Of a DNA stretch of 14,737 nucleotides, positions 1-14,737 are shown piece by piece; the stretch's first letter is position 1; every line of letters begins with the position of its first letter. Both the position numbers and the translations under genes were made by a program. This DNA comes from a virus, in IMG/VR virus record IMGVR_UViG_3300045988_176354, one strand, 5' to 3'. Below the pieces are notes generated by a model that saw only the letters and a program-made list of their open reading frames with translations, did no database searches and had not been told where the DNA came from.

Positions 1-124
1 AGTAGTACAGAATTCTGTAATATTCCGGTTCCCACCGTTACAGATTTCTGAACAGTTGCTTGTACATGTACTGCAAACACATGTCCGCAGTGTAGGTACA
101 CCTGCAAGCAGGGCAGGGGAGTGC
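1..124. repeat. Left inverted terminal repeat, perfect portion (putative replication origin)
   Basis: Bases 1-124 equal the reverse complement of 14614-14737 with no mismatch by manual alignment. The first mismatch is at 125 versus 14613. The repeat begins AGTAGTA and contains the palindromes TACAGAATTCTGTA (6-19) and GTACATGTAC (62-71). Confidence 0.95.
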
Positions 125-930: not shown

Positions 931-1013
931 AAAGCGGGAAAAGATGCGCAAGCTATACGGACGGAATCCGGCGCATGACCTTGTAGCGGGTCAAGAGTCT
1001 TTTCCCGCTTTTT
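931..1013 (+). ncRNA. Structured ~80-nt RNA: three-way junction closed by a 14-bp helix and followed by a T5 tract (pRNA-like candidate and/or leader terminator)
   Basis: Helix A pairs 931-944 with 998-1011 (14 perfect bp). Helix B pairs 945-949 with 971-975, followed by an 8-nt bulge (950-957). A hairpin pairs 958-961 with 967-970. Helix D pairs 977-980 with 989-992 around an 8-nt loop (981-988). T1009-T1013 follow. No ORF is present on this strand. The element lies directly downstream of the promoter at 901-929. Confidence 0.55.
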
Positions 1014-2969: not shown

Positions 2970-3001
2970 GCCCCGTGTCAGTCATGGCACGGGGTATTTT
3001 T
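2970..3001 (+). terminator. Intrinsic terminator or attenuator after the capsid gene
   Basis: The stem CCCCGTG (2971-2977) pairs with CACGGGG (2988-2994), extendable by C-G and T-G pairs. It is followed by TATTTTT (2995-3001). Confidence 0.7.
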
Positions 3002-3016
3002 GAAAGAGGTGAGATT

Positions 3017-4498
3017 TTGAATATCACGCTATATCAATTTGCCAAAAAGCTGAACAGCACCGCCCGCCCATCCGGCACTTCAAAAGGTGTGCAAGGGCAG
3101 TTGCGGGAATCTTGCAGCATGTTAGCGCCGGAAATTGGTTTTGTTGCATTTGGGCAGTCTGAAAGCCCCCATGCATGGAACTATGCATATATCCCAGATT
3201 TTGGCAGATTTTATTTCATTGACAACTGGACATGGGCGGGCGGCATGTGGTACGCAAGTATGACTGTAGACCCTTTGGCAAGTTGGCGCAATGAGATTGC
3301 CGATAGTACAGAGTATATTGTAAGAGCTGCAAGCGCTGTCAATCCTAATATTATTGATACCACATACCCCACATTAAGCTATGCAAGATTAGCAAGGCAG
3401 GATTTGCCTGCAATTTATACAGATAACGTGCAGGGCGGTACTTTTATTTTTGGCGTGCAGGCATCCGGCTATAATGCTTTTGGCTCTACAACTACAATAG
3501 CATGTAAGGCAGACGGTTTTAAAAAGTTAATGACAAAATTACTATCCGATACCGACTATCTCAATATTGACCCTAACGAGATTAGCGGAAATCTTGCAAA
3601 AGCGCTGTTTAATCCTGTCCAGTATTTTAGTTTTGCATATTGGCTGCCTTTTGGGGCAAGTTTTTCTGATGCATCAGCCGTGGAGAGTGTGCCGGTTGGT
3701 TGGTGGAAATTAGATGTCGGAGATAGATTTTGGATACTTGACCAAAATAATGATAGCTTAAAATATCGTTTTAACGTTGCAATCCCCAAGCATCCCGCAG
3801 CAGATAGCAAACATTCTTATTTAAAAGCATCCCCGTACAGCACCTATAAAATGTATATGCCGGGTTTTGGTTTGATTGACATTGACAGCAGCAGATTGTA
3901 TAATGCAAATAGATTGTACGGGAGTCTTGCAATTGACCTTTACACCGGAAACGCGGTTTTGGAACTGTCAGCGCGGGAAGATTATAAAGTCGCATTTCAA
4001 ACCCTGACAGGCAATGTCGCGGTACAAATCCAAATCGGACAAATCACAAGCATGGTTAATACCGCAGGCGGAGTTGTGCAGGCAGTCGCTGGCGGTGTAG
4101 TTGCCGGTGCTCAGTCGTTTTTCCAGCAGGCGGCGGACATTACGCGCAAAGTACACGACTGGATTAACGGAGCCGAAACCTTAGGACTTGACCAAAACGC
4201 GGCGGCAATTTCCAACGGCATCCAGAGCGGAGCACAGCAGGCGACCGCAGAAAGTGTTTCAAAAGGCGGTCAGGGCAGTGTTGTTGAATATGGCTACACC
4301 CCCTATCTGTTAGGCAAGTTTTGGGATTTGGTGGGAGAAGCCCCGGAACACCGCGGTTATCCCGTATGTGAGACCCGCAAAATTGGCAGCTTGTCCGGCT
4401 TTATCATGTGTTCCGACAGCGATTTTTCCGCCCCTGCAACGTCTCTGGAAATTAGCGCAATTCGGGAACATCTTAATAATGGCTTTTATTTTGAATAA
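3017..4498 (+). CDS. Tail knob / distal tail tube protein (phi29 gp9-like)
   Basis: The ORF is open from 2975, but that GTG sits inside the terminator stem. The TTG at 3017 follows AGAGGTGAG (3004-3012). The N-terminal region (NYAYIPDFGRFYFIDNWTWAGGMWYASMTVDPLASW...EYIVRA) parallels the phi29 gp9 region (SYIMFQNADYGNKWFYAFVTELEF...FIVREH) from memory. A Gly/Ala/Val-rich loop lies near the C-terminal third. Confidence 0.65.
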   Translation: MNITLYQFAKKLNSTARPSGTSKGVQGQLRESCSMLAPEIGFVAFGQSESPHAWNYAYIPDFGRFYFIDNWTWAGGMWYASMTVDPLASWRNEIADSTEYIVRAASAVNPNIIDTTYPTLSYARLARQDLPAIYTDNVQGGTFIFGVQASGYNAFGSTTTIACKADGFKKLMTKLLSDTDYLNIDPNEISGNLAKALFNPVQYFSFAYWLPFGASFSDASAVESVPVGWWKLDVGDRFWILDQNNDSLKYRFNVAIPKHPAADSKHSYLKASPYSTYKMYMPGFGLIDIDSSRLYNANRLYGSLAIDLYTGNAVLELSAREDYKVAFQTLTGNVAVQIQIGQITSMVNTAGGVVQAVAGGVVAGAQSFFQQAADITRKVHDWINGAETLGLDQNAAAISNGIQSGAQQATAESVSKGGQGSVVEYGYTPYLLGKFWDLVGEAPEHRGYPVCETRKIGSLSGFIMCSDSDFSAPATSLEISAIREHLNNGFYFE

Positions 4499-4514: not shown

Positions 4515-5066
4515 ATGGCAAGCTATCCGCAATGTATCACGGATGAGAGCACAATCACAGTGACCGCAGCATATCCGTATTATTCGGACGGGTCGCACCA
4601 TGGCGGCATTGATACCAAGCACCCCAATGATTTTCTTGCATTTGCACCGCAGGCCGGTACAATTGTAACGGCGCATACTTGGCAAGGCGGGACAACCGGT
4701 AACGACAGTTGGGGCAACTATATCGTAGTAGATATGGGCAACAACCGTTATTGGCTTGCTGCGCATTTTAAGGCGCAGACGCATACAGTCGGAGAGGTGC
4801 TTAAAGCTGGTGACTTAATCGGTACACAGGGCCGGACCGGCAATGTAACTGGTGTGCATACCCATTGGGAATATTGGGTGGGCGGTCGCTCTACTCGATA
4901 CCGTCAAGACCCTTCCCAGATTTTGGGCATCCCTAACGCGGTTGGGAAATATGATGTGACTTGGAGCGCAGACAATCCGCCCGGCCCCGGCCCGGAGCCG
5001 CCCACGCCGGGTAAAAAAGCAATCCCGGTATGGCTATTGCTCAAAATGGCAAGGAGGTGTAAATAA
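4515..5066 (+). CDS. M23 (LytM-type) zinc metallopeptidase, probable virion-associated peptidoglycan hydrolase (gp13-like function)
   Basis: HxxxD motif (HGGID) and HxH motif (GVHTHWEYW). AGGAG RBS. Pro-rich linker (NPPGPGPEPPTPG) followed by a short basic/hydrophobic tail. It lies between the tail knob and connector genes. Confidence 0.8.
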   Translation: MASYPQCITDESTITVTAAYPYYSDGSHHGGIDTKHPNDFLAFAPQAGTIVTAHTWQGGTTGNDSWGNYIVVDMGNNRYWLAAHFKAQTHTVGEVLKAGDLIGTQGRTGNVTGVHTHWEYWVGGRSTRYRQDPSQILGIPNAVGKYDVTWSADNPPGPGPEPPTPGKKAIPVWLLLKMARRCK

Positions 5067-5977
5067 TGCAAGCCGCGCCTTATATGTATGATTATATCAA
5101 TGCAGAGGTAAGCCAGCACAGCCCCAGTACAGTACACACTAAAAACACAGAGCTGCAACGCTTTTTTGCCCGCTACCTGCTGCAAAAGGCAATGTCTGTA
5201 TTTAAGTGGGACTTGCCCGAAACGTGGGACAGGGACTACTTTTTGTATGTGCTGTACGGCATCGGCTATATTGCGGTACTCAATACCGACAAGTACGGAG
5301 TTATCCCGCAGCAATGCGGGCTTGACGGCTACAACATCTTTTACCAGCCAAAACGCGCACTTATCACAAATCCCTTGCTTAAGGGCTTGCGCAGTTTGGA
5401 TATTGGCACGCAGTGCACGCTTATCAAGCTGCAACCCGATTATGGCAGCGTAATGGATTTGGTGGGATTTTATGCCGATATGATGGCCTTAACAGCCGAA
5501 ACAGCCGGAGTAAACCTTGTAAACAGCCGGTTGTCCTATGTGTTTTTCGGTAAAAATAAAAATACCGCTGAAAGTCAAAAGAAGCTGTTTGACCGTGTGG
5601 CAAGCGGCGAACCTGCAACATTTGTTGATACTGCGCTTTATGATGTCCAGAGCGGCAACCCCTCTTGGATACCGTTCCAACAGAATGTTGGTCAAAACTA
5701 TATTGCCGGTGATGCATTGGCAGACCTTCGCAAATGGGAAATGATGTTTGATACTGATGTCGGCATCCCAAACGCAAACACCGACAAAAAAGAACGTCTT
5801 ATCAGCGATGAAGTAAACGCAAACAACGTGGAAGTAACCAGCAAAGCAGACTTGTGGCTTGACCAACTGCAAAAGAGTTTTGCGCAAACTAGCAAAATGT
5901 TTGGCATTAAACTCGGTGTTGAATGGCGGAACAAACCGCAGTTAAGCGCAGGAAGTGAGGGCGGCAAAGATGAGTAG
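5066..5977 (+). CDS. Head-tail connector / portal (upper collar, phi29 gp10-like)
   Basis: 303 aa, against 309 aa for phi29 gp10. NANTDKKERLISDEVNANNVEV matches the gp10 segment [22 protein letters not shown] recalled from memory. The start overlaps the upstream stop (TAATG), and AGGAGG lies upstream. Confidence 0.8.
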   Translation: MQAAPYMYDYINAEVSQHSPSTVHTKNTELQRFFARYLLQKAMSVFKWDLPETWDRDYFLYVLYGIGYIAVLNTDKYGVIPQQCGLDGYNIFYQPKRALITNPLLKGLRSLDIGTQCTLIKLQPDYGSVMDLVGFYADMMALTAETAGVNLVNSRLSYVFFGKNKNTAESQKKLFDRVASGEPATFVDTALYDVQSGNPSWIPFQQNVGQNYIAGDALADLRKWEMMFDTDVGIPNANTDKKERLISDEVNANNVEVTSKADLWLDQLQKSFAQTSKMFGIKLGVEWRNKPQLSAGSEGGKDE

Positions 5978-7234: not shown

Positions 7235-7450
7235 ATGCCAAGTAATTATGTATCTAAGATTACCCTTAATGACCAAGAAGTGATTGTAAAAGATAGTGAA
7301 GCGCGTACAGCTGCTACCACGGCAAGCGCTAATGCTACTAATGCTCTTAACAAAGTCACTGAATTGGAAAAGCTCTCACGTGTGGAAGTTGCATATACCG
7401 CGGATACTGAAACAATTAGTATTACTGCTGGAAACCATAATGTTAATTAA
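7235..7450 (+). CDS. Short fibre protein (71 aa), paralogue of the 137-aa fibre protein
   Basis: The N-terminus (KITLNDQEVIVKDSEAR) and C-terminus (ALNKVTELEKLSRVEVAYTADTETISIT) align with the next gene. It has three Ala-heptads in between. Confidence 0.65.
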   Translation: MPSNYVSKITLNDQEVIVKDSEARTAATTASANATNALNKVTELEKLSRVEVAYTADTETISITAGNHNVN

Positions 7451-7462
7451 AGGAGAAAAAAC

Positions 7463-7876
7463 ATGGCTGAAACTACTAATTTTGTAACGCAAATCAATAT
7501 TGATGGCACTATCTGCGAAATTAAAGACTCTGTAGCACGTACTGATGCAGCTAGTGCTAAGTCTACAGCTAACACTGCTAAGTCTACTGCTGATGCTGCT
7601 AAGTCTACTGCTGATACTGCATCCACTAATGCAACTAATGCTGTTAATAAAGCTAATAGTGCTACCACTACTGCCAACACTGCTAAGACTACTGCTGATG
7701 CTGCTGCAAAAAATGCAAGTGATGCTAAAAATACTGCTAATACTGCATCTACTAATGCAACTAATGCACTTAATAAAGCCACGAAACTTGAAAAACTTCC
7801 GCGTGTTACTGTAACTTATAGTGCTGCGGATACCACTATTAAAGTTGTTACCACTAATACACACGCGACAGCGTGA
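7463..7876 (+). CDS. Fibre protein with a 12-heptad alanine coiled-coil stalk (137 aa)
   Basis: AAGGAG RBS. N-terminus TQINIDGTICEIKDSVAR. Twelve consecutive AxxxAxx heptads. The C-terminus ALNKATKLEKLPRVTVTYSAADTTIKVV is homologous to the 71-aa protein. Confidence 0.7.
   Translation: MAETTNFVTQINIDGTICEIKDSVARTDAASAKSTANTAKSTADAAKSTADTASTNATNAVNKANSATTTANTAKTTADAAAKNASDAKNTANTASTNATNALNKATKLEKLPRVTVTYSAADTTIKVVTTNTHATA
7535..7786 (+). repeat. 21-bp periodic coding repeat (Ala at heptad positions 1 and 5, 12 units)
   Basis: The units are ARTDAAS, AKSTANT, AKSTADA, AKSTADT, ASTNATN, AVNKANS, ATTTANT, AKTTADA, AAKNASD, AKNTANT, ASTNATN and ALNKATK. The DNA units GCTAAGTCTAC(A/T)GCT... are visibly reiterated. 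The repeat generates spurious ORFs in other frames and on the other strand. Confidence 0.85.
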
Positions 7877-7898
7877 TATACAGAAAGGGTGGATTAAA

Positions 7899-9914
7899 AT
7901 GGCGAATCCTATTGTTGATAAATTTAAAATTGATAATACAATTTATGATGTGCAAGACACCAAAGCACGTGATGATGTAGCTAAGAAGATTGACAAGAGC
8001 ACCACAGGAGACCTTGCACAGACGGTCGGCGGGGACTATAACCAGACTGTTGGCGGAACCATGATATTAAATTCCGCCGGCTCTTTCGGAATCCGTCAAA
8101 ACAATACGCCGGTACTAACAGCAACAAACTTTGCGCTTACAATCGGCACGAGCGCAAAAAACATCCCTCTGGATATATACGCGAACCCTAACTTTAAGAC
8201 TCTGCGGGTATCTAATATTGACGACAATTACGCCAATGTAGATATTAACGTAAATAATAGCACAACGCATTTCTTGGTAAGCCGTACCGGCAAAATTCCC
8301 GGCAGTATCAAGCCCTCTCCGCGTAGCATCGAAGAATTTCAGGAACTGAAAAAAGATGGCACCGATGATATTACCGCAACCCTGAACACATACACCAAAC
8401 AATTCCCGCTATTTATTCCGGTCGGTATCTACAAGATTAGCGCACCGGTGCAGCTCAAGCATAGCTTGTATGGTGCAAGCGCGTCTCGCGACCCTGCACG
8501 CGGCAGCAGTGACACGATTCTGCAGTATACCGGCAATCCGACAGCGTTTGGCAGCCTTGGCGTTTTGACTGTATCCGGCAATGATGTAGACGGCAATGTT
8601 GTCATTGCAAATTTGGATATTATTTGCAATGGCATGATTGGCGGCATCGTGTTTACGACAAATGTATACACCGATAATTATATTTACAATGTAAGTATTA
8701 GCGGTGTAAAATCCTATGGCGTGTATTTGCAACCTACTGCCAGCACGTTAAACCGATACTGCTATATGGATAACATTTCGGTATGGGGATTCAGTGACGT
8801 TCACCCAACAGAGCGTGTGACCGGTAACACGGCTTTCTACTGGGGCGACCGCGCTCCCGATTGCATTTGCAACAACCTGCTTGCAATGGTGTGCCAGACC
8901 GGATTTGACTGTCGGACTAACGTGATTGGCTGCAACTGGATTACTTACAACGGTATCCCGTCCGGCGGCACCGGCGGAGCTGATGCAAATGCGTGGTGGG
9001 AAAACACCATCGGCCTAAAAGTCACTAACAACGATGTACACATTACTAACCTGTATCTTGATACTTGCCGCCATGGCATTGTATTTGATGGGCCGGGCAA
9101 GGCTGCCGCATACATTAACAACCTGATTTACACGGTTAATGACAGCACGGCAACCACCGGAGAGGGCAACGCAGCAATTGCGCTTATTGGCACAAGCCCT
9201 AGTCCGCAGTTGACGGTTGACGGCGGTGTAATTAACCGCAGCGCAAAAGTATCTACCACTGTGCAATCGATTGGCCAGTATCCCGTTACTGCCATGGTGT
9301 GCAAGATTAACAACGCGTACATCTACACTAAGCGCGAGTATATTTTTAGCGGTAACAACCAGTATATTTGCAAGGCGGGAGAGCATCGGTGTATTGACTT
9401 TGCAATCACAGACCAGACCCAGTACACCGTTGCGGGGCAGTCGGAGACCGGAGACCCTTACCAGTATAAGGCATTTGCGTATATCCCGGTGCCGTCCGAA
9501 AATAACACTACTCAAGGCAGAATCCGCCTGTGCGATAAGGACAACATGGATTATACAATCTTTGTGACCAAAAACCAGACGAGTAATGCACTTGACATTA
9601 GCGCATTTGACAATCGCGCACTTAATCAGTCGATTTTTAATGCATCCGCAGGTACAAGCAAGACAGTTACTTGGGATATTATCGATAACGCAGACAAGTT
9701 ATACTATGCCGTGGATGCTAACACAATTATCCTGTACTGCAAGCGACACGCTTCTACTACTTACACTGTGCATCTTTCCGGTTTTCAGCCCGGAAACTCT
9801 CCTGTGATGCTTGACCGCATCCGCAATATGGACGGCACGCCAATGGACTTCCCGCGGTGGGACAATCACAACGGCATGACTGCAATCAAGGTTTTGCGGC
9901 CTAACATCTCTTAA
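7899..9914 (+). CDS. Tailspike / pre-neck appendage-like protein with a probable right-handed beta-helix (pectate-lyase-type) domain
   Basis: The ATG at 7899 follows AAAGGGTGGA; the ORF track starts upstream at 7821 inside the previous gene. Its N-terminus shares the fibre motif (KFKIDNTIYDVQDTKAR). The segment DDITATLNTYTKQFPLFIPVGIYKISAPVQL, followed by repetitive N/G/V/I-rich rungs, resembles phi29 gp12-type depolymerase spikes. Confidence 0.65.
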   Translation: MANPIVDKFKIDNTIYDVQDTKARDDVAKKIDKSTTGDLAQTVGGDYNQTVGGTMILNSAGSFGIRQNNTPVLTATNFALTIGTSAKNIPLDIYANPNFKTLRVSNIDDNYANVDINVNNSTTHFLVSRTGKIPGSIKPSPRSIEEFQELKKDGTDDITATLNTYTKQFPLFIPVGIYKISAPVQLKHSLYGASASRDPARGSSDTILQYTGNPTAFGSLGVLTVSGNDVDGNVVIANLDIICNGMIGGIVFTTNVYTDNYIYNVSISGVKSYGVYLQPTASTLNRYCYMDNISVWGFSDVHPTERVTGNTAFYWGDRAPDCICNNLLAMVCQTGFDCRTNVIGCNWITYNGIPSGGTGGADANAWWENTIGLKVTNNDVHITNLYLDTCRHGIVFDGPGKAAAYINNLIYTVNDSTATTGEGNAAIALIGTSPSPQLTVDGGVINRSAKVSTTVQSIGQYPVTAMVCKINNAYIYTKREYIFSGNNQYICKAGEHRCIDFAITDQTQYTVAGQSETGDPYQYKAFAYIPVPSENNTTQGRIRLCDKDNMDYTIFVTKNQTSNALDISAFDNRALNQSIFNASAGTSKTVTWDIIDNADKLYYAVDANTIILYCKRHASTTYTVHLSGFQPGNSPVMLDRIRNMDGTPMDFPRWDNHNGMTAIKVLRPNIS

Positions 9915-9918
9915 CAGC

Positions 9919-9953
9919 AACAGCCCCTGCCAATACGGCAGGGGCTGTTTTTT
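9919..9953. terminator. Convergent (bidirectional) intrinsic terminator between the late operon and the right-arm operon
   Basis: AACAGCCCCTGCC (9919-9931) pairs with GGCAGGGGCTGTT (9937-9949) around a 5-nt loop, followed by TTTT (9950-9953). It overlaps the ATPase stop codon. The U-tract is weaker on the - strand. Confidence 0.8.
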
Positions 9954-11016
9954 ATGATTTTCGGCTTGAGATTTTTGCGCCCTCTCGGAAATACTTATCT
10001 AGTAATACTTCGCAAATTGGCGACTCAAATAAAACAATGTCGGTATAATAGTACGCAAGGCGAAACCATGCAAAGTGGGCGTTAAACATCTGTATGCCGC
10101 GTTCTGTGCTTTCATATACAGGGCAATTTCCAGATTTGTGGGTTGTGACATAATATTTTTCTTTCGATTTATGCTTATATATTTCGAGTTCGCCCATAAC
10201 ACATATGGGTTTATACTCAATAATGTTTTGGGGCTTTATCTGGCTGTATTCCTGCCTAAAATCGTTATTGAGCGCCATAGCACTGTATAACTTATCTTTA
10301 GTAAGCCGGTACAATGCGGTATTGGCTTTTTGCACCGAGATTGGAGAGTGTTGCAGCATCACAAGAGTAATACCGCGCTCCGTGTCTTGCCACATTTCCG
10401 TTTTAGTATCAATCATTTTTTGAGCACGCGAAACAAGCCCCATATCCAAAAACAGCGGGTTTGCAATATCGTTTGCGTTGGCGAGACACAGCATTTTAAG
10501 GGGCGGTTCGCCTTTTAACTCTCTGTTACGGTTAATTGTTTCATATGCGTTATAAAATGCAGCAGCTTCATTTTTTAGCGGACGTTCGTGTTTTTCGGGT
10601 ATAAATTCATCATATATACAAATTTTACAATCCTCTGCGCTAAAACCGCGCATGTTGGAGATTGTAGATAATGCGCAGGTGTAACCATACGGCAGGCCGC
10701 CGGTGTATTTGCCATCGTCATCGACATCATAAAATGCGCTACTACCCTTGGATATCGGAAAAGGTTTGATGTTCAAACCCATATCTTCACAGACCGGCTT
10801 GATGGGGCTGAACTCTGGTTTATTAACTAAGTCAATGGCGGTTTGCGTTCGGCGCATGAGCATAAATGTTATACGATGCTCAAGTACATATTTTAATGCG
10901 CCATATGTTTTACCGGTGCCGCGTCCGCCTACAATCATAATATAAGGCGTTTTTAAGCCCATAATATAATCCATGTTCAAATATCCCGATTCTAAGTATA
11001 GCTTGTTCTTTTTCAT
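9952..11016 (-). CDS. DNA encapsidation (packaging) ATPase, phi29 gp16-like
   Basis: Walker A GGRGTGKTY (phi29: GARGIGKSY), MLMRRTQ (phi29: IYVRRYK) and Walker B ICIYDEFIPEK (phi29: IVFDEFIREK). INRNRE...LCLANANDIANPLF corresponds to phi29 VFRNRE...CLSNAVSVVNPYF. All phi29 segments are from memory. 354 aa. Confidence 0.85.
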   Translation of the reverse strand: MKKNKLYLESGYLNMDYIMGLKTPYIMIVGGRGTGKTYGALKYVLEHRITFMLMRRTQTAIDLVNKPEFSPIKPVCEDMGLNIKPFPISKGSSAFYDVDDDGKYTGGLPYGYTCALSTISNMRGFSAEDCKICIYDEFIPEKHERPLKNEAAAFYNAYETINRNRELKGEPPLKMLCLANANDIANPLFLDMGLVSRAQKMIDTKTEMWQDTERGITLVMLQHSPISVQKANTALYRLTKDKLYSAMALNNDFRQEYSQIKPQNIIEYKPICVMGELEIYKHKSKEKYYVTTHKSGNCPVYESTERGIQMFNAHFAWFRLAYYYTDIVLFESPICEVLLDKYFREGAKISSRKS

Positions 11017-11040
11017 CTTTTACTCACTTTCGTATATTTC

Positions 11041-11074
11041 AAAAGGGCGGCGGTTTTCAAGCCGCCGCCCTTTT
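11041..11074. terminator. Strong GC-rich hairpin terminator between the SSB-like gene and the ATPase gene
   Basis: AAAA, then GGGCGGCGG (11045-11053), an 8-nt loop, CCGCCGCCC (11062-11070), then TTTT. The symmetric flanks give a U-tract on either strand. On the - strand it lies 5' of the ATPase RBS (AAAGTGAG). Confidence 0.75.
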
Positions 11075-11107
11075 GTTGGGGAGGAATTATGTCAAGAATG
11101 GAAATGG

Positions 11108-11458
11108 TTAGTTCATCTTGCAGCCGATATAATGTCTGCCGTTTTTGCTTTCGCCACCGATGACTTCAATGTCAATAGTGGCAAGGTCTGCGCCGTACTG
11201 GTTGGCAACATCAACGATAGCATCAAAGTCGCGTTTGAACGTGCTGGAAATGGTGCTGAACGTGTCGCCTTCGCTGGTAAGCACTGCAAGCACTTCCTGC
11301 TCATCGCCCTTGGCGTTGACATCTTCATACAGGGCATACGCTTCAATATTGAAAGTCGCGCCTTCAAGCGTTTTCATCGGGCGGGAATCGGGGTTGCGGG
11401 TCAGGCTATAAGCCTGCTTCATGGTCAGGTTTTCGGGGAAGCTCTTAATGATTTTCAT
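11108..11458 (-). CDS. Hypothetical early protein, SSB-sized (possible single-stranded DNA-binding protein)
   Basis: 116-aa ORF with an AAGGAG RBS, directly downstream of the polymerase gene in the replication arm. Its size and position are comparable to phi29 gp5. I recognised no definitive motif. Confidence 0.35.
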   Translation of the reverse strand: MKIIKSFPENLTMKQAYSLTRNPDSRPMKTLEGATFNIEAYALYEDVNAKGDEQEVLAVLTSEGDTFSTISSTFKRDFDAIVDVANQYGADLATIDIEVIGGESKNGRHYIGCKMN

Positions 11459-11537
11459 AATTGTTTACTCCTTTTCGTGTGTTTGTGTTTTGTAGCTTCC
11501 TGCTACAATTAAATGATACTGCTTATTTTACCAAATG

Positions 11538-13634
11538 TCAATATCCATTTTCAAAATATTCTTCAAGCCTGCCAATGCCTTTTCGGGTATAGTCACAACG
11601 CAAAAGCAAGTCCATGTATTCCGAAGTAATTCCAAGCTTGTATGTGCTTTCTCGGATAACGACATTTGATGTAATTGGCAATGTATGACCGTCTATTGTA
11701 ATGCTGTCTATCTCTGGACTATCGTTATATACGGATTCTGTACCGCCAGCATCCCGGAAAATAAAACCGGGCTTAAATGCATCAATACCGCCATTGCGTT
11801 CCAACTCTTTTGCGCCCTCTTTTTTGTTTACACCGGCGATTGTGCAGCACAATGGGCTTTCTGGCATTTCGCGGTAACAATATTTTTTCGCGCCCAGTGT
11901 TGCAAATTCGCACATATCATGTTCAGGTTCAAATACGCCCATATAATGCATTTTGCCGGATGGGTCAGCAGCATAAGCGCCTGATGCTTTACTATCTTTG
12001 ATTCTGGCTTTATTGTACTTCGTCCAGTCAATGTCGCCTAGATACTTGACAGAATCAGTATCACAATAAACAAAGCCATCCCCTGCAAGCTCTATGCCCT
12101 CTTCAAGACGATATCGCGCATTGGCAGTAACCCAAACACCCCACTGATAGCACAGAAAGGCGTTGCGCAGATTCTGCGACAATATTTTTTCAAGCGGCGT
12201 TTTTTCATCAATTTCAAATTCCTCTTCAGGTGTGTATAATATGGAGCGTTTGCCGGGGTCTTGTGCCATCATGCCATATATACTATTGAGCTTGTTTTTA
12301 CTTTTCATGTAATACAACTCTTGACCGGGTACATTCTTCAAACTGGTTTTTGCGCGGTAATAATCTATTGCACATTCGATTAGTTCGCGGGGCAATTTGG
12401 CGTAAGTCGATTGCCAACAATCAAACGCTCTAAAACCGCTAAACTTGTACTCTTTAAGGATTATGGCAAGGTCAACATCTGTCACGGTTGTTTCGAGATA
12501 TTTCGCGCTTAATATTCGCCCGTTGTCGCGGTCTGGGTCAATAACATTCCGGCTCTTATCAATCGTAAGATACGGGCAACCCCAGCAAGGGTTGATTAAC
12601 TCAACGTCTGTTAATGCGATACGCATTATTAGCGCTTTGCGGTGCTGGTTTAGTTTCCGCTTGAGACCATCAAGTGTTATTTCGCCAATAGGTTCAAATG
12701 CCCGCATTGGGTACAGACAATTACATAGCACATCCGGGTAACTGCTGCTGCGGTCTGCGCTCTGGATTTTACCGCGCAGCACTTGACCGGTATAATAGCG
12801 GTTGGCGTGAGTGTTGCCGCCGCGAAACGCTTCGCGCAACATTGTGTATAATTCTGCATCGGGCTGGATTGCACCGAGACGTTCCATTCCCGCGCGCTTC
12901 ATCGCGGCGCGTGCATCGCGGCGCACATAGCCAGTTGAGGTCAAAGGGATTGTGTAGAGGTTGTCATTGTCGTGGTGCATCTCAATGGTGAGGGCTTCAC
13001 ACAGGCCTAGCACATCATTTACACAATATTCCAATTCATCATCAGACAAGACCGTCCATGGATAGCGGGGTTTATTGTAGTCAAATTTTACGCCAGATAG
13101 TTTGCCGTGGGCAACGCCCATTTTGTGGGTATATGCATCTAGAGACATATTAGAGTGTAGGTAACTACACCTAAACTCAAAAAAATTATTGTACATTGTG
13201 CATTTTAGCACTTTCCGGCAGTCAACGGCAAAAATCTCATCATTTGTAAAATGATAGATACCCCGCAAAAATTGAAACTCATATGACAGATTATGAACAT
13301 ATACACATAGCTGCAAATGATAATCTTCTTGAGATTGTTCTCGCATGCAGGCTTCGAGACTGGCACAAAATGCTTCAAATTCTTCCCATGTTCTGCCAAC
13401 GACAGTAAGATTTATAGGTTCTGCAAAATGCCATTGCCAAATATACATCACAGCTTGTTCTATCGACTTAATTCGGGTTGTTTCAATGTCAAACGCTGTC
13501 ACAATATCAAGAAATTTTGTCTTTTTGGTTTTCGTTATTTTCCTGTCCAGCACTGGCAGCGCGGAGAATTTCTCAAGAGGAAAATCAACCACCGAACAAA
13601 CGGCTTGCCCATTCTTCAAGGTCTTTACTTTCAA
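11538..13634 (-). CDS. Protein-primed family-B DNA polymerase
   Basis: Exo I FDIETT, Exo II HNLSYEFQF, Exo III YCVNDV, motif A DRSSSYP, motif B KNKLNSIYGMM, motif C YCDTDS, and KxY GAKKYCY. The apparent TTG start at 13634 follows AAGGTGA. 698 aa. Confidence 0.9.
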   Translation of the reverse strand: MKVKTLKNGQAVCSVVDFPLEKFSALPVLDRKITKTKKTKFLDIVTAFDIETTRIKSIEQAVMYIWQWHFAEPINLTVVGRTWEEFEAFCASLEACMREQSQEDYHLQLCVYVHNLSYEFQFLRGIYHFTNDEIFAVDCRKVLKCTMYNNFFEFRCSYLHSNMSLDAYTHKMGVAHGKLSGVKFDYNKPRYPWTVLSDDELEYCVNDVLGLCEALTIEMHHDNDNLYTIPLTSTGYVRRDARAAMKRAGMERLGAIQPDAELYTMLREAFRGGNTHANRYYTGQVLRGKIQSADRSSSYPDVLCNCLYPMRAFEPIGEITLDGLKRKLNQHRKALIMRIALTDVELINPCWGCPYLTIDKSRNVIDPDRDNGRILSAKYLETTVTDVDLAIILKEYKFSGFRAFDCWQSTYAKLPRELIECAIDYYRAKTSLKNVPGQELYYMKSKNKLNSIYGMMAQDPGKRSILYTPEEEFEIDEKTPLEKILSQNLRNAFLCYQWGVWVTANARYRLEEGIELAGDGFVYCDTDSVKYLGDIDWTKYNKARIKDSKASGAYAADPSGKMHYMGVFEPEHDMCEFATLGAKKYCYREMPESPLCCTIAGVNKKEGAKELERNGGIDAFKPGFIFRDAGGTESVYNDSPEIDSITIDGHTLPITSNVVIRESTYKLGITSEYMDLLLRCDYTRKGIGRLEEYFENGY

Positions 13635-14211: not shown

Positions 14212-14446
14212 ATTCCATGCTCCTTTCCTGCAATGCAAAGGTTAATTTTACGATTTGAGAATCTCGTGCAATAATATTCATATCTTCGATGGTTGCATCA
14301 CGATATACACGGGGCATTGACCGGAATTCTCCAGTCCACATAGGCAATCCACCTTTTTCCGCACTGTATACACTAACCAAAATATCGGGGTTCAGGGTGT
14401 AACACATGCGGTAAAAATCCAAGGGTGTGATGTTGCGTTTTTTCAT
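14198..14446 (-). CDS. Hypothetical small early protein, first gene of the right arm, paralogue of 715-897
   Basis: The ATG at 14446 follows the ITR-borne RBS AGGGAG. 82 aa. LDFYRMC, VSVY and TGEFRSMP align with the left-arm protein. Confidence 0.7.
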   Translation of the reverse strand: MKKRNITPLDFYRMCYTLNPDILVSVYSAEKGGLPMWTGEFRSMPRVYRDATIEDMNIIARDSQIVKLTFALQERSMEFGKA

Positions 14447-14613
14447 TTCAAATTCTCCCTTTCTGTGTCAGTGTGTAGTATAGCGATATGTACCCTTATA
14501 GTACAATTATAGTATAGCACAGAGCGCCCCCTCGGGTACATGGACTATATAACCATACTATGCACAATTGTGTCATTGTTATAACTAAGAATTGTTACTA
14601 GATACACCAGCAT
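14447..14613. repeat. Right ITR, imperfect inner extension
   Basis: Its reverse complement aligns with 125-295, with indels and substitutions. Confidence 0.85.
14511..14541 (-). promoter_or_regulatory. Right early promoter (mirror copy of the left one)
   Basis: The reverse complement of 14511-14519 is TGCTATACT (extended -10). The TGTACC -35-like element has an 18-bp spacer here, one extra G compared with the left copy. Confidence 0.55.
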
Positions 14614-14737
14614 GCACTCCCCTGCCCTGCTTGCAGGTGTACCTACACTGCGGACATGTGTTTGCAGTACATGTACAAGCAACTGTTCAGAAATCTGTAA
14701 CGGTGGGAACCGGAATATTACAGAATTCTGTACTACT
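14614..14737. repeat. Right inverted terminal repeat, perfect portion
   Basis: It is the exact reverse complement of 1-124. Confidence 0.95.

Follow-up and report, generated by a model that had tools for sequence, protein, structure and literature searches.

We analysed a stretch of 14,737 nucleotides (IMG/VR virus record IMGVR_UViG_3300045988_176354; hereafter the window), which is a complete linear genome of a phi29-like phage, and found directly behind a promoter an RNA element of about 78-80 nt (about 934-1013) that forms a three-way junction. It is likely, in our judgement, that this element encodes a prohead (packaging) RNA in compact form, homologous to the larger prohead RNA (pRNA) of phi29. 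The reading is carried by the structure of the element, its covariation among relatives, a covarying complementarity between a bulge and a hairpin loop, the promoter, the type of phage and a continuum of forms leading to phi29 pRNA. What is new is a much smaller variant of pRNA, with a distribution far wider than assumed. A 2024 review covering 2115 phi29-related genomes describes pRNA as unique to phi29 and related Bacillus phages "according to current knowledge" (PMC11476376), another source confines it likewise to these phages (PMC5066667), and a 2025 Infernal search seeded with phi29, GA-1 and DLc1 added 12 more pRNAs, all of them from Bacillus phages (PMC12670572). In the literature that we searched, there was nothing on pRNA in Guelinviridae or in gut phages.

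The window has the make-up of a protein-primed phage, with terminal inverted repeats and matches to PF05352, PF05894 and PF03175. The repeats, at 1-295 and 14443-14737, are about 295 bp long, far longer than the 6-bp terminal repeats of phi29, and consist of three adjoining blocks that are 92-99% complementary. As the original prediction had claimed from the sequence, a gp10-like connector and a gp16-like ATPase are encoded, according to Pfam, PHROG and PDB matches. The gene for the gp10-type connector (portal; 5066-5977, + strand) matched PF05352 (4.5e-19), the PHROG upper collar connector and the PDB entries 7pv2, 7pv4 and 1h5w, and the best solved-structure matches of its product were the portals of GA-1, phiCPV4 and phi29. 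The gene for the gp16-type packaging ATPase (9952-11016, - strand) matched PF05894 (8.9e-13) and the PHROG terminase, with phi29 gp16 as the best PDB match (7jqq, 6.5e-10). These two proteins are the presumed partners of the RNA. A family-B polymerase of the protein-primed type is encoded at 11538-13634 (- strand; PF03175). Among cultured phages, Amedibacillus phage AD70P2 (Guelinviridae) comes closest in connector sequence, with 29.5% identity, and the identity is about 27% to the Guelinviridae of Clostridium perfringens and 23-28% to phi29-like Bacillus phages.

Promoter and fold of the element

A promoter scan placed a near-consensus promoter at 901-929 on the + strand, composed of the -35 box TTGACA (901-906) and, at a 17-nt spacing, the extended -10 box TG-A-TACTAT (921-929). 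It matches 10 of the 12 consensus positions in addition to the extended -10 TG. The original prediction had such a promoter lead straight into a non-coding segment of about 80 nt, and all of this was found where it had been placed. Judging from the position of the -10 box, transcription would start at about G934-G937.

Unconstrained minimum free energy (MFE) folds of 925-1020, 931-1016 and 934-1013 all yielded the same three-way junction, thereby reproducing a structure that had been traced base by base. The fold z-score was -4.0 to -4.6, and none of 200 shuffled sequences was as stable. Helix A, which closes the junction, is formed by 931-944 and 998-1011 (+ strand, like all parts of the element); the MFE folds support both strands, as do the double change G934U/C1008A and the family covariation for the 5' strand and the relatives and the family alignment for the 3' strand (see below). 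The MFE folds lengthen this helix to the pairs 930/1012 and 945/997. The perfect 14-bp helix described beforehand stands as pairing in the DNA-derived fold; in the transcript, however, helix A is probably about 9-11 bp long, not 14, because a start at about G934-G937 would leave only about 934/936-944 of its 5' strand transcribed. U1009-1011 would then belong to the terminator tail and not to the helix. This estimate agrees with other lineages, in most of which 14-19 nt separate the end of the -10 box from helix C and the junction, a constant spacing that suggests that the transcript starts where a helix A of about 9-11 bp begins.

Helix C joins 945-949 to 971-975, on the basis of the MFE folds and of the family alignment. 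Four of the five pairs that had been assigned to this arm are present in the MFE structure (946-949/971-974), whereas the fifth, U945-A975, is only one of two equally possible alternatives, the other being U945-G997. On the 5' side, helix C is followed by an 8-nt bulge (AAGCUAUA, 950-957) and the helix E hairpin (CGGA-CGGAA-UCCG, 958-970) with its pentaloop at 962-966. The helix D hairpin (976-993) has the stem 977-980/989-992, which can be extended by U976-A993 and U981-G988, and with both of these pairs its loop becomes UGUAGC (982-987). A D-to-A linker of 4-5 nt (994-997), whose sequence is not conserved in the family, leads back to helix A, which together with a U5 tract (1009-1013) makes up an intrinsic-terminator-like 3' end. 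The complementarity between bulge and hairpin loop that had been pointed out is present as described: GCUAUA (952-957) and UGUAGC (982-987), read from the sequence, can form 6 bp including one G-U pair (U956-G983).

Covariation across gut and rumen phages

In 11 contigs that are 90-98% identical to the window in this region, the RNA is nearly unchanged. Their promoter hexamers are invariant, the -35 box being the same in 12 close relatives, and most positions of the 17-nt spacer differ, a pattern typical of a promoter that works. The few changes in the RNA preserve its pairing. In contig L012, G934U is paired with C1008A, a compensatory change in helix A; in L002, C1008U gives a G-U pair in the same helix, and the changes A957G in the bulge and G983A in the loop are both compatible with the bulge/loop duplex. 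A932G, also giving G-U, occurs in five contigs, and G-U-compatible changes in helix A were found among L007-L013.

The same kind of RNA was found in about 90 related phage contigs of 12-15 kb from gut and rumen, with one copy per genome, always on the late-gene strand and behind a sigma-70-type promoter (TTGACA/TATAAT) at the head of the structural operon. The related contigs came from human gut and ruminant samples, and some had been binned into metagenome-assembled genomes (MAGs) of Clostridia. Contigs whose connector is 50-64% identical to that of the window have no nucleotide similarity to the element and carry an RNA of the same design behind a promoter, at the equivalent place, namely a gap a few kb upstream of the connector gene and just before the genes for the small protein, the scaffold and the capsid. 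The relatives were located by synteny, a stem-plus-U-tract scan, anchoring on the CGGAA hairpin and a structural descriptor allowing any E loop. Anchoring on the E hairpin revealed the RNA in nearly every contig covering the region, and the any-E-loop descriptor found it in the remaining ones, with the loop CAGAA or CUGAA. Among the MAG-binned contigs, 8 of 11 had the RNA; a strict descriptor gave no match in the MAG contigs L106-L108 or in the distant genome L096. Within the genomes looked at, the RNA was found only in those with gp10-type and gp16-type genes.

Other search routes were less rewarding. Connector alignment against IMG/VR was far more productive for finding relatives than a metagenome search with one ATPase sequence, which returned close relatives only, and blastn of the element against distant loci gave no match. 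A custom covariance model (R1; N-padded, parse-based alignment) was weak, with a best score of 34.5 bits; it missed the window's own RNA through filters and pulled flanks into helix A, and it was not used as evidence, although it revealed L085, which has a CAGAA loop.

The dimensions of the family were taken from 49 distinct parsed sequences, all of which keep the element order of the three-way junction. The RNAs are 58-85 nt long (median 74). Helix A comprises 5-17 bp as drawn, helix C 4-6 bp, helix E 3-5 bp (mostly 4) and helix D 4-7 bp; the 5' bulge has 6-9 nt (mostly 7-8) and the D loop 4-8 nt; and the A-to-C, C-to-D and D-to-A linkers have 0-2, 0-2 and mostly 4-5 nt, respectively. The pentaloop of helix E, CNGAA overall, is the sole invariant sequence block. 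A match of at least 9/12 to TTGACA-16..18-TATAAT lies upstream in 47 of the 49 members, compared with 8.6% of control windows.

The helices were then assessed in a structure-guided alignment of 34 diverse members (A4). Since this alignment was built from the helices, its 100% pairing follows from the way it was made, and the evidence lies solely in the diversity of pair types. Of the 35 pairs in helices A, C, E and D, 32 change on both sides, and a single position has up to six types of pair; such both-sided changes affect 15 of 17 pairs in helix A, all 6 in helix C and 6 of 7 in the helix D stem. The covariation of helix A for which a check in relatives had been proposed was therefore confirmed. 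Two checks less prone to bias agreed with this. Single-sequence MFE folding with 10-nt flanks recovered 92% of the assigned pairs on average, and at least 80% in 42 of the 49 sequences. In a plain MAFFT alignment, RNAalifold found the four stem pairs of helix E to covary, with 5-15 double changes per pair.

Covariation between the bulge and the D loop, which the original prediction had singled out as well, is equally evident: complementarity is maintained through at least 17 different sequence pairs across the relatives. Written as bulge/D loop, the pair GCUAUA/UGUAGC of the 14,737-bp genome is replaced by UGUGUCA or UGUAUCA with UGAUGCA (L014, L100/L101), AGACAA/UUGUCU (L015), GUGCA/UGCAC (L027), UGUCA/UGACA (L028), AGUCA/UGACU (L030), UCGCC/GGCGA (L042), GGAC/GUCC (L044), AUGC/GCAU (L053), AACC/GGUU (L066), AACUA/UGGUU (L067), GAGC/GCUC (L072), GCAU/GUGC (L077), GGACAA/UUGUCC (L091), ACAGC/GCUGU (L105) and, in one clade, CGC/GCG. 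L045 has GUGC/GCAC, and L052 has the swapped pair GCAC/GUGC. Irrespective of register, the longest complement had a mean of 4.59 bp over 29 distinct bulge/loop combinations, compared with 3.26 +/- 0.15 after shuffling of the loops (maximum of 2000 shuffles 3.79) and a mean of 3.08 for non-cognate combinations. When bulge positions 3-8 are set against the final six positions of the loop, a fixed register chosen without fitting to this pairing, 63% of the cells pair, compared with 42.4 +/- 3.1% in shuffled sets (0 of 500 reaching the observed value) and 29-34% in five of six slid registers, and the covariation score was 0.38 versus 0.15; kinship among the sequences inflates both statistics, and the independent switches of sequence are the stronger argument.

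Relation to phi29 pRNA and competing readings

According to the Rfam consensus, phi29 pRNA consists of helix A, 1 nt, a helix C of 9 bp with a 1-nt bulge, a 9-nt bulge on the 5' side only, a helix E of 4 bp with a 6-nt loop, C', UUU, hairpin D (6 bp with a 5-nt loop) and, directly following, A'. The new family shares with it the order A, C, 5' bulge, 4-bp E hairpin, C', D hairpin and A', a helix A formed from the two RNA ends, a bulge of 7-9 nt confined to the 5' side, an E loop of 5-6 nt, and a covarying bulge/D-loop complement of 3-7 bp in which the first paired bulge base meets the last D-loop base (A45-U85 in phi29). The bulge corresponds to the CE or "right-hand" loop of phi29 pRNA, and the loop of hairpin D to its D or "left-hand" loop. 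Both occur in protein-primed phages with gp10 and gp16. The claim that the order of elements is that of phi29 pRNA was thus upheld against the Rfam consensus, but the linkers at the junction differ. The family is also smaller (58-85 nt, compared with 120 nt for minimal and up to 174 nt for full phi29-family pRNAs), has a helix C of 4-6 bp instead of 9 bp, and has an invariant CNGAA in the E loop where phi29 has UUGAGU.

More distant phages, cultured ones among them, carry RNAs of 65-120 nt in the corresponding place, which in the cultured Guelinviridae immediately precedes the scaffold and capsid genes. The RNA measures about 65 nt in the cultured Amedibacillus phage AD70P2 (E loop UCGAA; bulge/loop complement AUCC/GGAU) and about 70 nt in MT836587.1 (L095; AGCC; UCC/GGA). 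In cultured C. perfringens phages, the RNA reaches about 93 nt in CpV1 (E loop GUAGAA; CGCA/UGCG), about 110 nt in phiCPV4 (two-part helix A, 7-bp helix C, E loop UGGAA; GCCA/UGGC) and about 118 nt in phi24R (26-bp bulged helix A, E loop GUAGAA; GUCA/UGAC). The Guelinviridae RNAs thus share the architecture and an E loop ending in GAA (UGGAA, GUAGAA, UCGAA), in phages whose connectors are only 25-30% identical to that of the 14,737-bp genome, and those of phi24R, phiCPV4 and CpV1 are larger, with long interrupted A helices and 6-8-bp C helices. In phi24R, helix C has 8 bp with a 1-nt bulge, the C-to-D linker is U-rich and the D-to-A linker is 1 nt long, as in phi29, and the dot-bracket strings of the two RNAs are nearly superimposable. 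We therefore regard the RNA as a shortened homologue of pRNA and not as a look-alike.

In 15 C. perfringens phages, the phiCPV4 region recurs with at least 97% identity, nearly always without annotation, and CPS2, with 90.6% identity to this region, has compensatory changes in helix A. Among the distinct matched C. perfringens phages, 13 of 15 have no annotation over the RNA region. A "hypothetical protein" is called over it in CPS2 (L109, NC_048707.1, 1337-1459) and in phage cpx (MW679027.1, 1787-1957), and these short open reading frame (ORF) calls are probably mis-calls. The comparison thereby flags an unannotated or mis-annotated gene in deposited genomes of C. perfringens phages that are under antimicrobial development. 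Outside Bacillus phages, a putative pRNA has been proposed for Streptococcus phage Cp-1, for the finding of which a Bacillus-pRNA covariance model was unreliable (PMC6266182). Cp-1 belongs to a different phage family (Madridviridae).

With the phi29 system as a model (Guo et al. 1987 and later work, summarised in PMC5066667 and PMC12670572), the element may work as follows. A strong constitutive promoter at the head of the structural operon would give rise to an RNA of about 78 nt that accumulates as a discrete molecule and folds as a three-way junction. Its 5' and 3' ends would pair into a helix A of about one turn, after which the U tract would end most transcripts, while others would continue into the capsid genes. 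Each molecule would pair its 8-nt bulge with the hairpin loop of the next, "hand in hand", and such intermolecular pairing would close a ring round the narrow end of the gp10-type connector on the prohead. The conserved CNGAA loop would touch a conserved prohead protein, whereas helix A would point outward and dock the gp16-type ATPase, which would package the protein-primed linear genome and would require the RNA to do so. In the 14,737-bp phage, helix A and U5 may also meter the read-through into the capsid genes.

Several observations weigh against this reading. The Rfam model of phage pRNA (Phage_pRNA, RF00044) gave no match at E <= 10, either in the whole genome or in 890-1050 alone (161 nt), although the same model scored 145.4 bits on phi29 pRNA as a positive control (gathering threshold, 100 bits); this miss had been predicted, and the homology consequently rests on architecture and intermediates, not on a score. 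In the plain MAFFT alignment, RNAalifold recovered no helix but E, the loss of A, C and D resulting from register shifts due to bulges of 7 versus 8 nt and D loops of 4-8 nt, so that the covariation counts for these three helices come from the structure-guided alignment only, backed by the alignment-free MFE check. The junction is wired differently, with A-C, C-D and D-A linkers of 0-1, 0-2 and 4-5 nt in the family versus 1, 3 and 0 nt in phi29, the longest linker being D-to-A here and C-to-D there. In the RNA of about 80 nt, helix A is an uninterrupted 9-15 bp instead of a long helix with conserved bulges, and it has no counterpart of the CCA bulge that phi29 needs for ATPase function; longer, interrupted A helices occur in the L015 clade, phiCPV4, phi24R and CpV1. 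The family's gene lies at the head of the late operon and that of phi29 pRNA at the left genome end. The shortest bulge/loop complements have 3 bp (CGC/GCG in one clade, UCC/GGA in L095); in phi29, 3-4 loop pairs are usual and two G/C pairs are enough for activity (PMC12670572), which makes the CGC/GCG lineages plausible and places them within the working range. Finally, the RNA always heads the late operon, and arms C and D are short, of similar length and joined by 0-2 nt; the former fits a cis-acting leader as well, and the latter is compatible with an intramolecular bulge-loop pseudoknot.

These last two points lead to the most serious competitor, which we nevertheless consider unlikely, namely a cis-acting 5' leader of the structural operon, in which bulge and loop pair within one molecule into a compact pseudoknotted junction, and which would control the timing, read-through or stability of the late transcript by binding a phage or host protein (for instance at the CNGAA loop) or by acting on RNA polymerase. 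Transcription of the late operon does indeed begin with the RNA in every case, on the same strand and at 14-101 nt from the first gene; where no terminator follows helix A, as in several lineages, the RNA is made within the mRNA; helix A with U5 would attenuate capsid-gene transcription in the 14,737-bp phage; and short, similar arms with a 0-2-nt linker recall the geometry of the loop-loop junctions of the purine riboswitch type. What a leader of this kind would be expected to conserve, however, varies. In the window, the first gene of the structural operon, encoding a small membrane protein with the motif VGFPIA (1049-1201, + strand), starts 36 nt after the RNA, and its ribosome-binding site (RBS) lies outside the fold; across the family, the distance from the RNA to the start codon ranges over 14-101 nt and the RBS is never part of the fold. 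The first downstream gene is holin-like in the L028 clade, encodes an unrelated 94-aa protein in L042 and encodes a scaffold-like repeat protein in L053, AD70P2 and L095. A U-rich tract follows helix A in about 60% of the lineages, including the 14,737-bp genome, and is missing in the L028, L042, L066, L077 and L091 lineages. The junction strands are short and unconserved, and the conserved features are all internal (the junction, the interlocking loops and the CNGAA hairpin). These data indicate that there is no conserved cis-regulatory logic; no conserved alternative pairing, RBS sequestration, universal terminator or ligand pocket was found. In addition, a contact of up to 6-7 bp within one molecule would seem strained for arms that have only 4-6 bp and a connection of 0-2 nt, and the long D-to-A linker would be expected, on the pattern of junction family C of Lescoute and Westhof, to turn D toward A and off the bulge. 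A leader would also fail to explain the element-by-element layout of phi29 pRNA or the phi29-type junction of phi24R, and the fact that folding of helix A means termination here is hard to square with an antitermination RNA.

A second competitor, another trans-acting small RNA (a regulatory RNA, a decoy or a protein scaffold) that resembles pRNA in shape only, appears to us quite improbable. It would account for the element's own promoter, for the terminator present in many lineages, for the invariant pentaloop as a possible protein-binding site and for the lack of a sequence-level match to pRNA. The covarying self-complementary loops, on the other hand, are a hallmark of self-assembling pRNA and have no role in the action of ordinary small RNAs, there is no conserved single-stranded seed beyond 5 nt, and the occurrence is confined to genomes with gp10-type and gp16-type genes among those looked at. 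The weakest competitor, an elaborate intrinsic terminator of the upstream early genes with incidental internal hairpins, fits the long G+C-rich helix, the U5 tract and an upstream ORF ending at 897, but it is hardly credible given a consensus promoter between the upstream gene and the structure that is kept in 47 of 49 lineages, internal arms and a bulge/loop complement that covary, and several lineages in which the RNA has no U tract; a plain terminator is contradicted by these comparative data. The G+C-rich stem and U5 of the RNA of about 80 nt are those of a terminator, yet its internal arms covary, and termination is a secondary role at most.

Known classes of RNA were examined as well. 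Purine riboswitches and hammerheads are three-way junctions with intramolecular loop-loop contacts, and HK022 put is a processive antitermination RNA. Like these, the element is a small RNA that opens an operon and has a closing helix, or a pair of hairpins with tertiary contacts, but its junction strands are short and unconserved, leaving no ligand pocket, and it has no hammerhead core. Rfam scans of the whole genome and of 890-1050 at E <= 10 returned chance-level matches only (an L20 leader at a terminator, sRNA-Xcc1 and SpF43) and no riboswitch or ribozyme. A known riboswitch or cis-regulatory RNA was rejected on the grounds that there is no Rfam match, the junction strands of 0-5 nt are unconserved and the RBS lies outside the fold; a put-like antiterminator was rejected since the finished fold makes a terminator here, the opposite of antitermination. 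A scan for tRNA and tmRNA found none. No + strand ORF spans 898-1048, which rules out a protein-coding reading of that segment.

To our knowledge, no RNA other than pRNA is known to be both structural and essential in a viral DNA-packaging motor, and pRNA is also a mainstay of RNA nanotechnology. Somewhat less firmly than for the element itself, we favour the wider view that prohead RNA is no speciality of Bacillus phages but ancestral and still widespread in the phi29-like phages of Clostridia (including Guelinviridae and a large uncultured gut/rumen clade), that the 58-85-nt form is the smallest natural packaging RNA, and that in phages like the present one it also meters capsid-gene transcription. 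If this is true, RNA-dependent packaging motors are widespread, and why such motors use RNA becomes testable in other hosts. Natural variation would then define a minimal core made up of the junction, the interlocking loops, the E hairpin and one turn of helix A, and it would supply new self-assembling RNA modules with many orthogonal loop pairs. The one-turn helix A, the half-length arms and the re-wired junction would imply a tighter ring or a different number of subunits, as well as a different mode of ATPase docking.

Genome organisation and further observations

In the clade of the 14,737-bp genome, the polymerase-ATPase block (9952-13634, - strand) lies at the right end on the opposite strand. 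In other clades (compared: L014-L019 and L094) and in AD70P2, the ATPase gene immediately precedes the RNA and shares its strand, and the location of the RNA tracks the head of the structural operon, not the ATPase gene. Right after the RNA, most lineages encode a conserved small protein of 50-88 aa that carries the motif (V/C)GFPI(A/V) and is hydrophobic in an N-terminal segment.

A palindrome, (T)GTTTCACGTGAAAC(A), recurs near the RNA in relatives. It lies inside the RNA's promoter spacer in L085 (about 4598-4625) and L099 (upstream of 5078) and just 3' of the RNA in the L015 (about 5375-5400) and L066 (about 3015-3030) clades, and phiCPV4 (L097) has several copies at 7838-7911 and 9835-9980. 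It looks like the operator of a conserved phage regulator; the 14,737-bp genome has no match to it with up to 3 mismatches allowed.

Further regulatory-type signals were noted elsewhere in the window. Each of the terminal repeats of about 295 bp contains an inward-pointing promoter-like sequence, and a promoter matching the consensus at 12 of 12 positions (TTGACA-17-TATAAT) lies at 3876-3904 (+ strand), within ORF 2975-4498. There are also three strong terminator hairpins. The one at 2970-2995 stands directly 3' of the 404-aa ORF 1743-2957, whose size and location make it the probable major capsid gene. The second (9919-9949), bidirectional and 13 bp long, separates the late operon from the ATPase gene convergent with it, and the third, with A and U runs on either side (11044-11071), is located upstream of the ATPase gene, where weak Rfam matches to L20_leader and HCV_5BSL1 coincide with it.

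Two ORFs contain repeats. In ORF 1415-1732, whose product is a probable scaffold protein, nine copies of a 9-nt tandem repeat (GCTGCACCC/GCTGCACAT, 1476-1583) code for PAA/HAA repeats, and the relatives have PAPAPA or EQKKE repeats at the same place. ORF 7463-7876 contains a 21-nt periodic repeat (7534-7779) with about seven overlapping copies of a 99-nt unit that are 64-77% identical; it encodes a heptad-like protein rich in Ala, Thr, Lys and Ser, and a related second block is present at 7311-7355.

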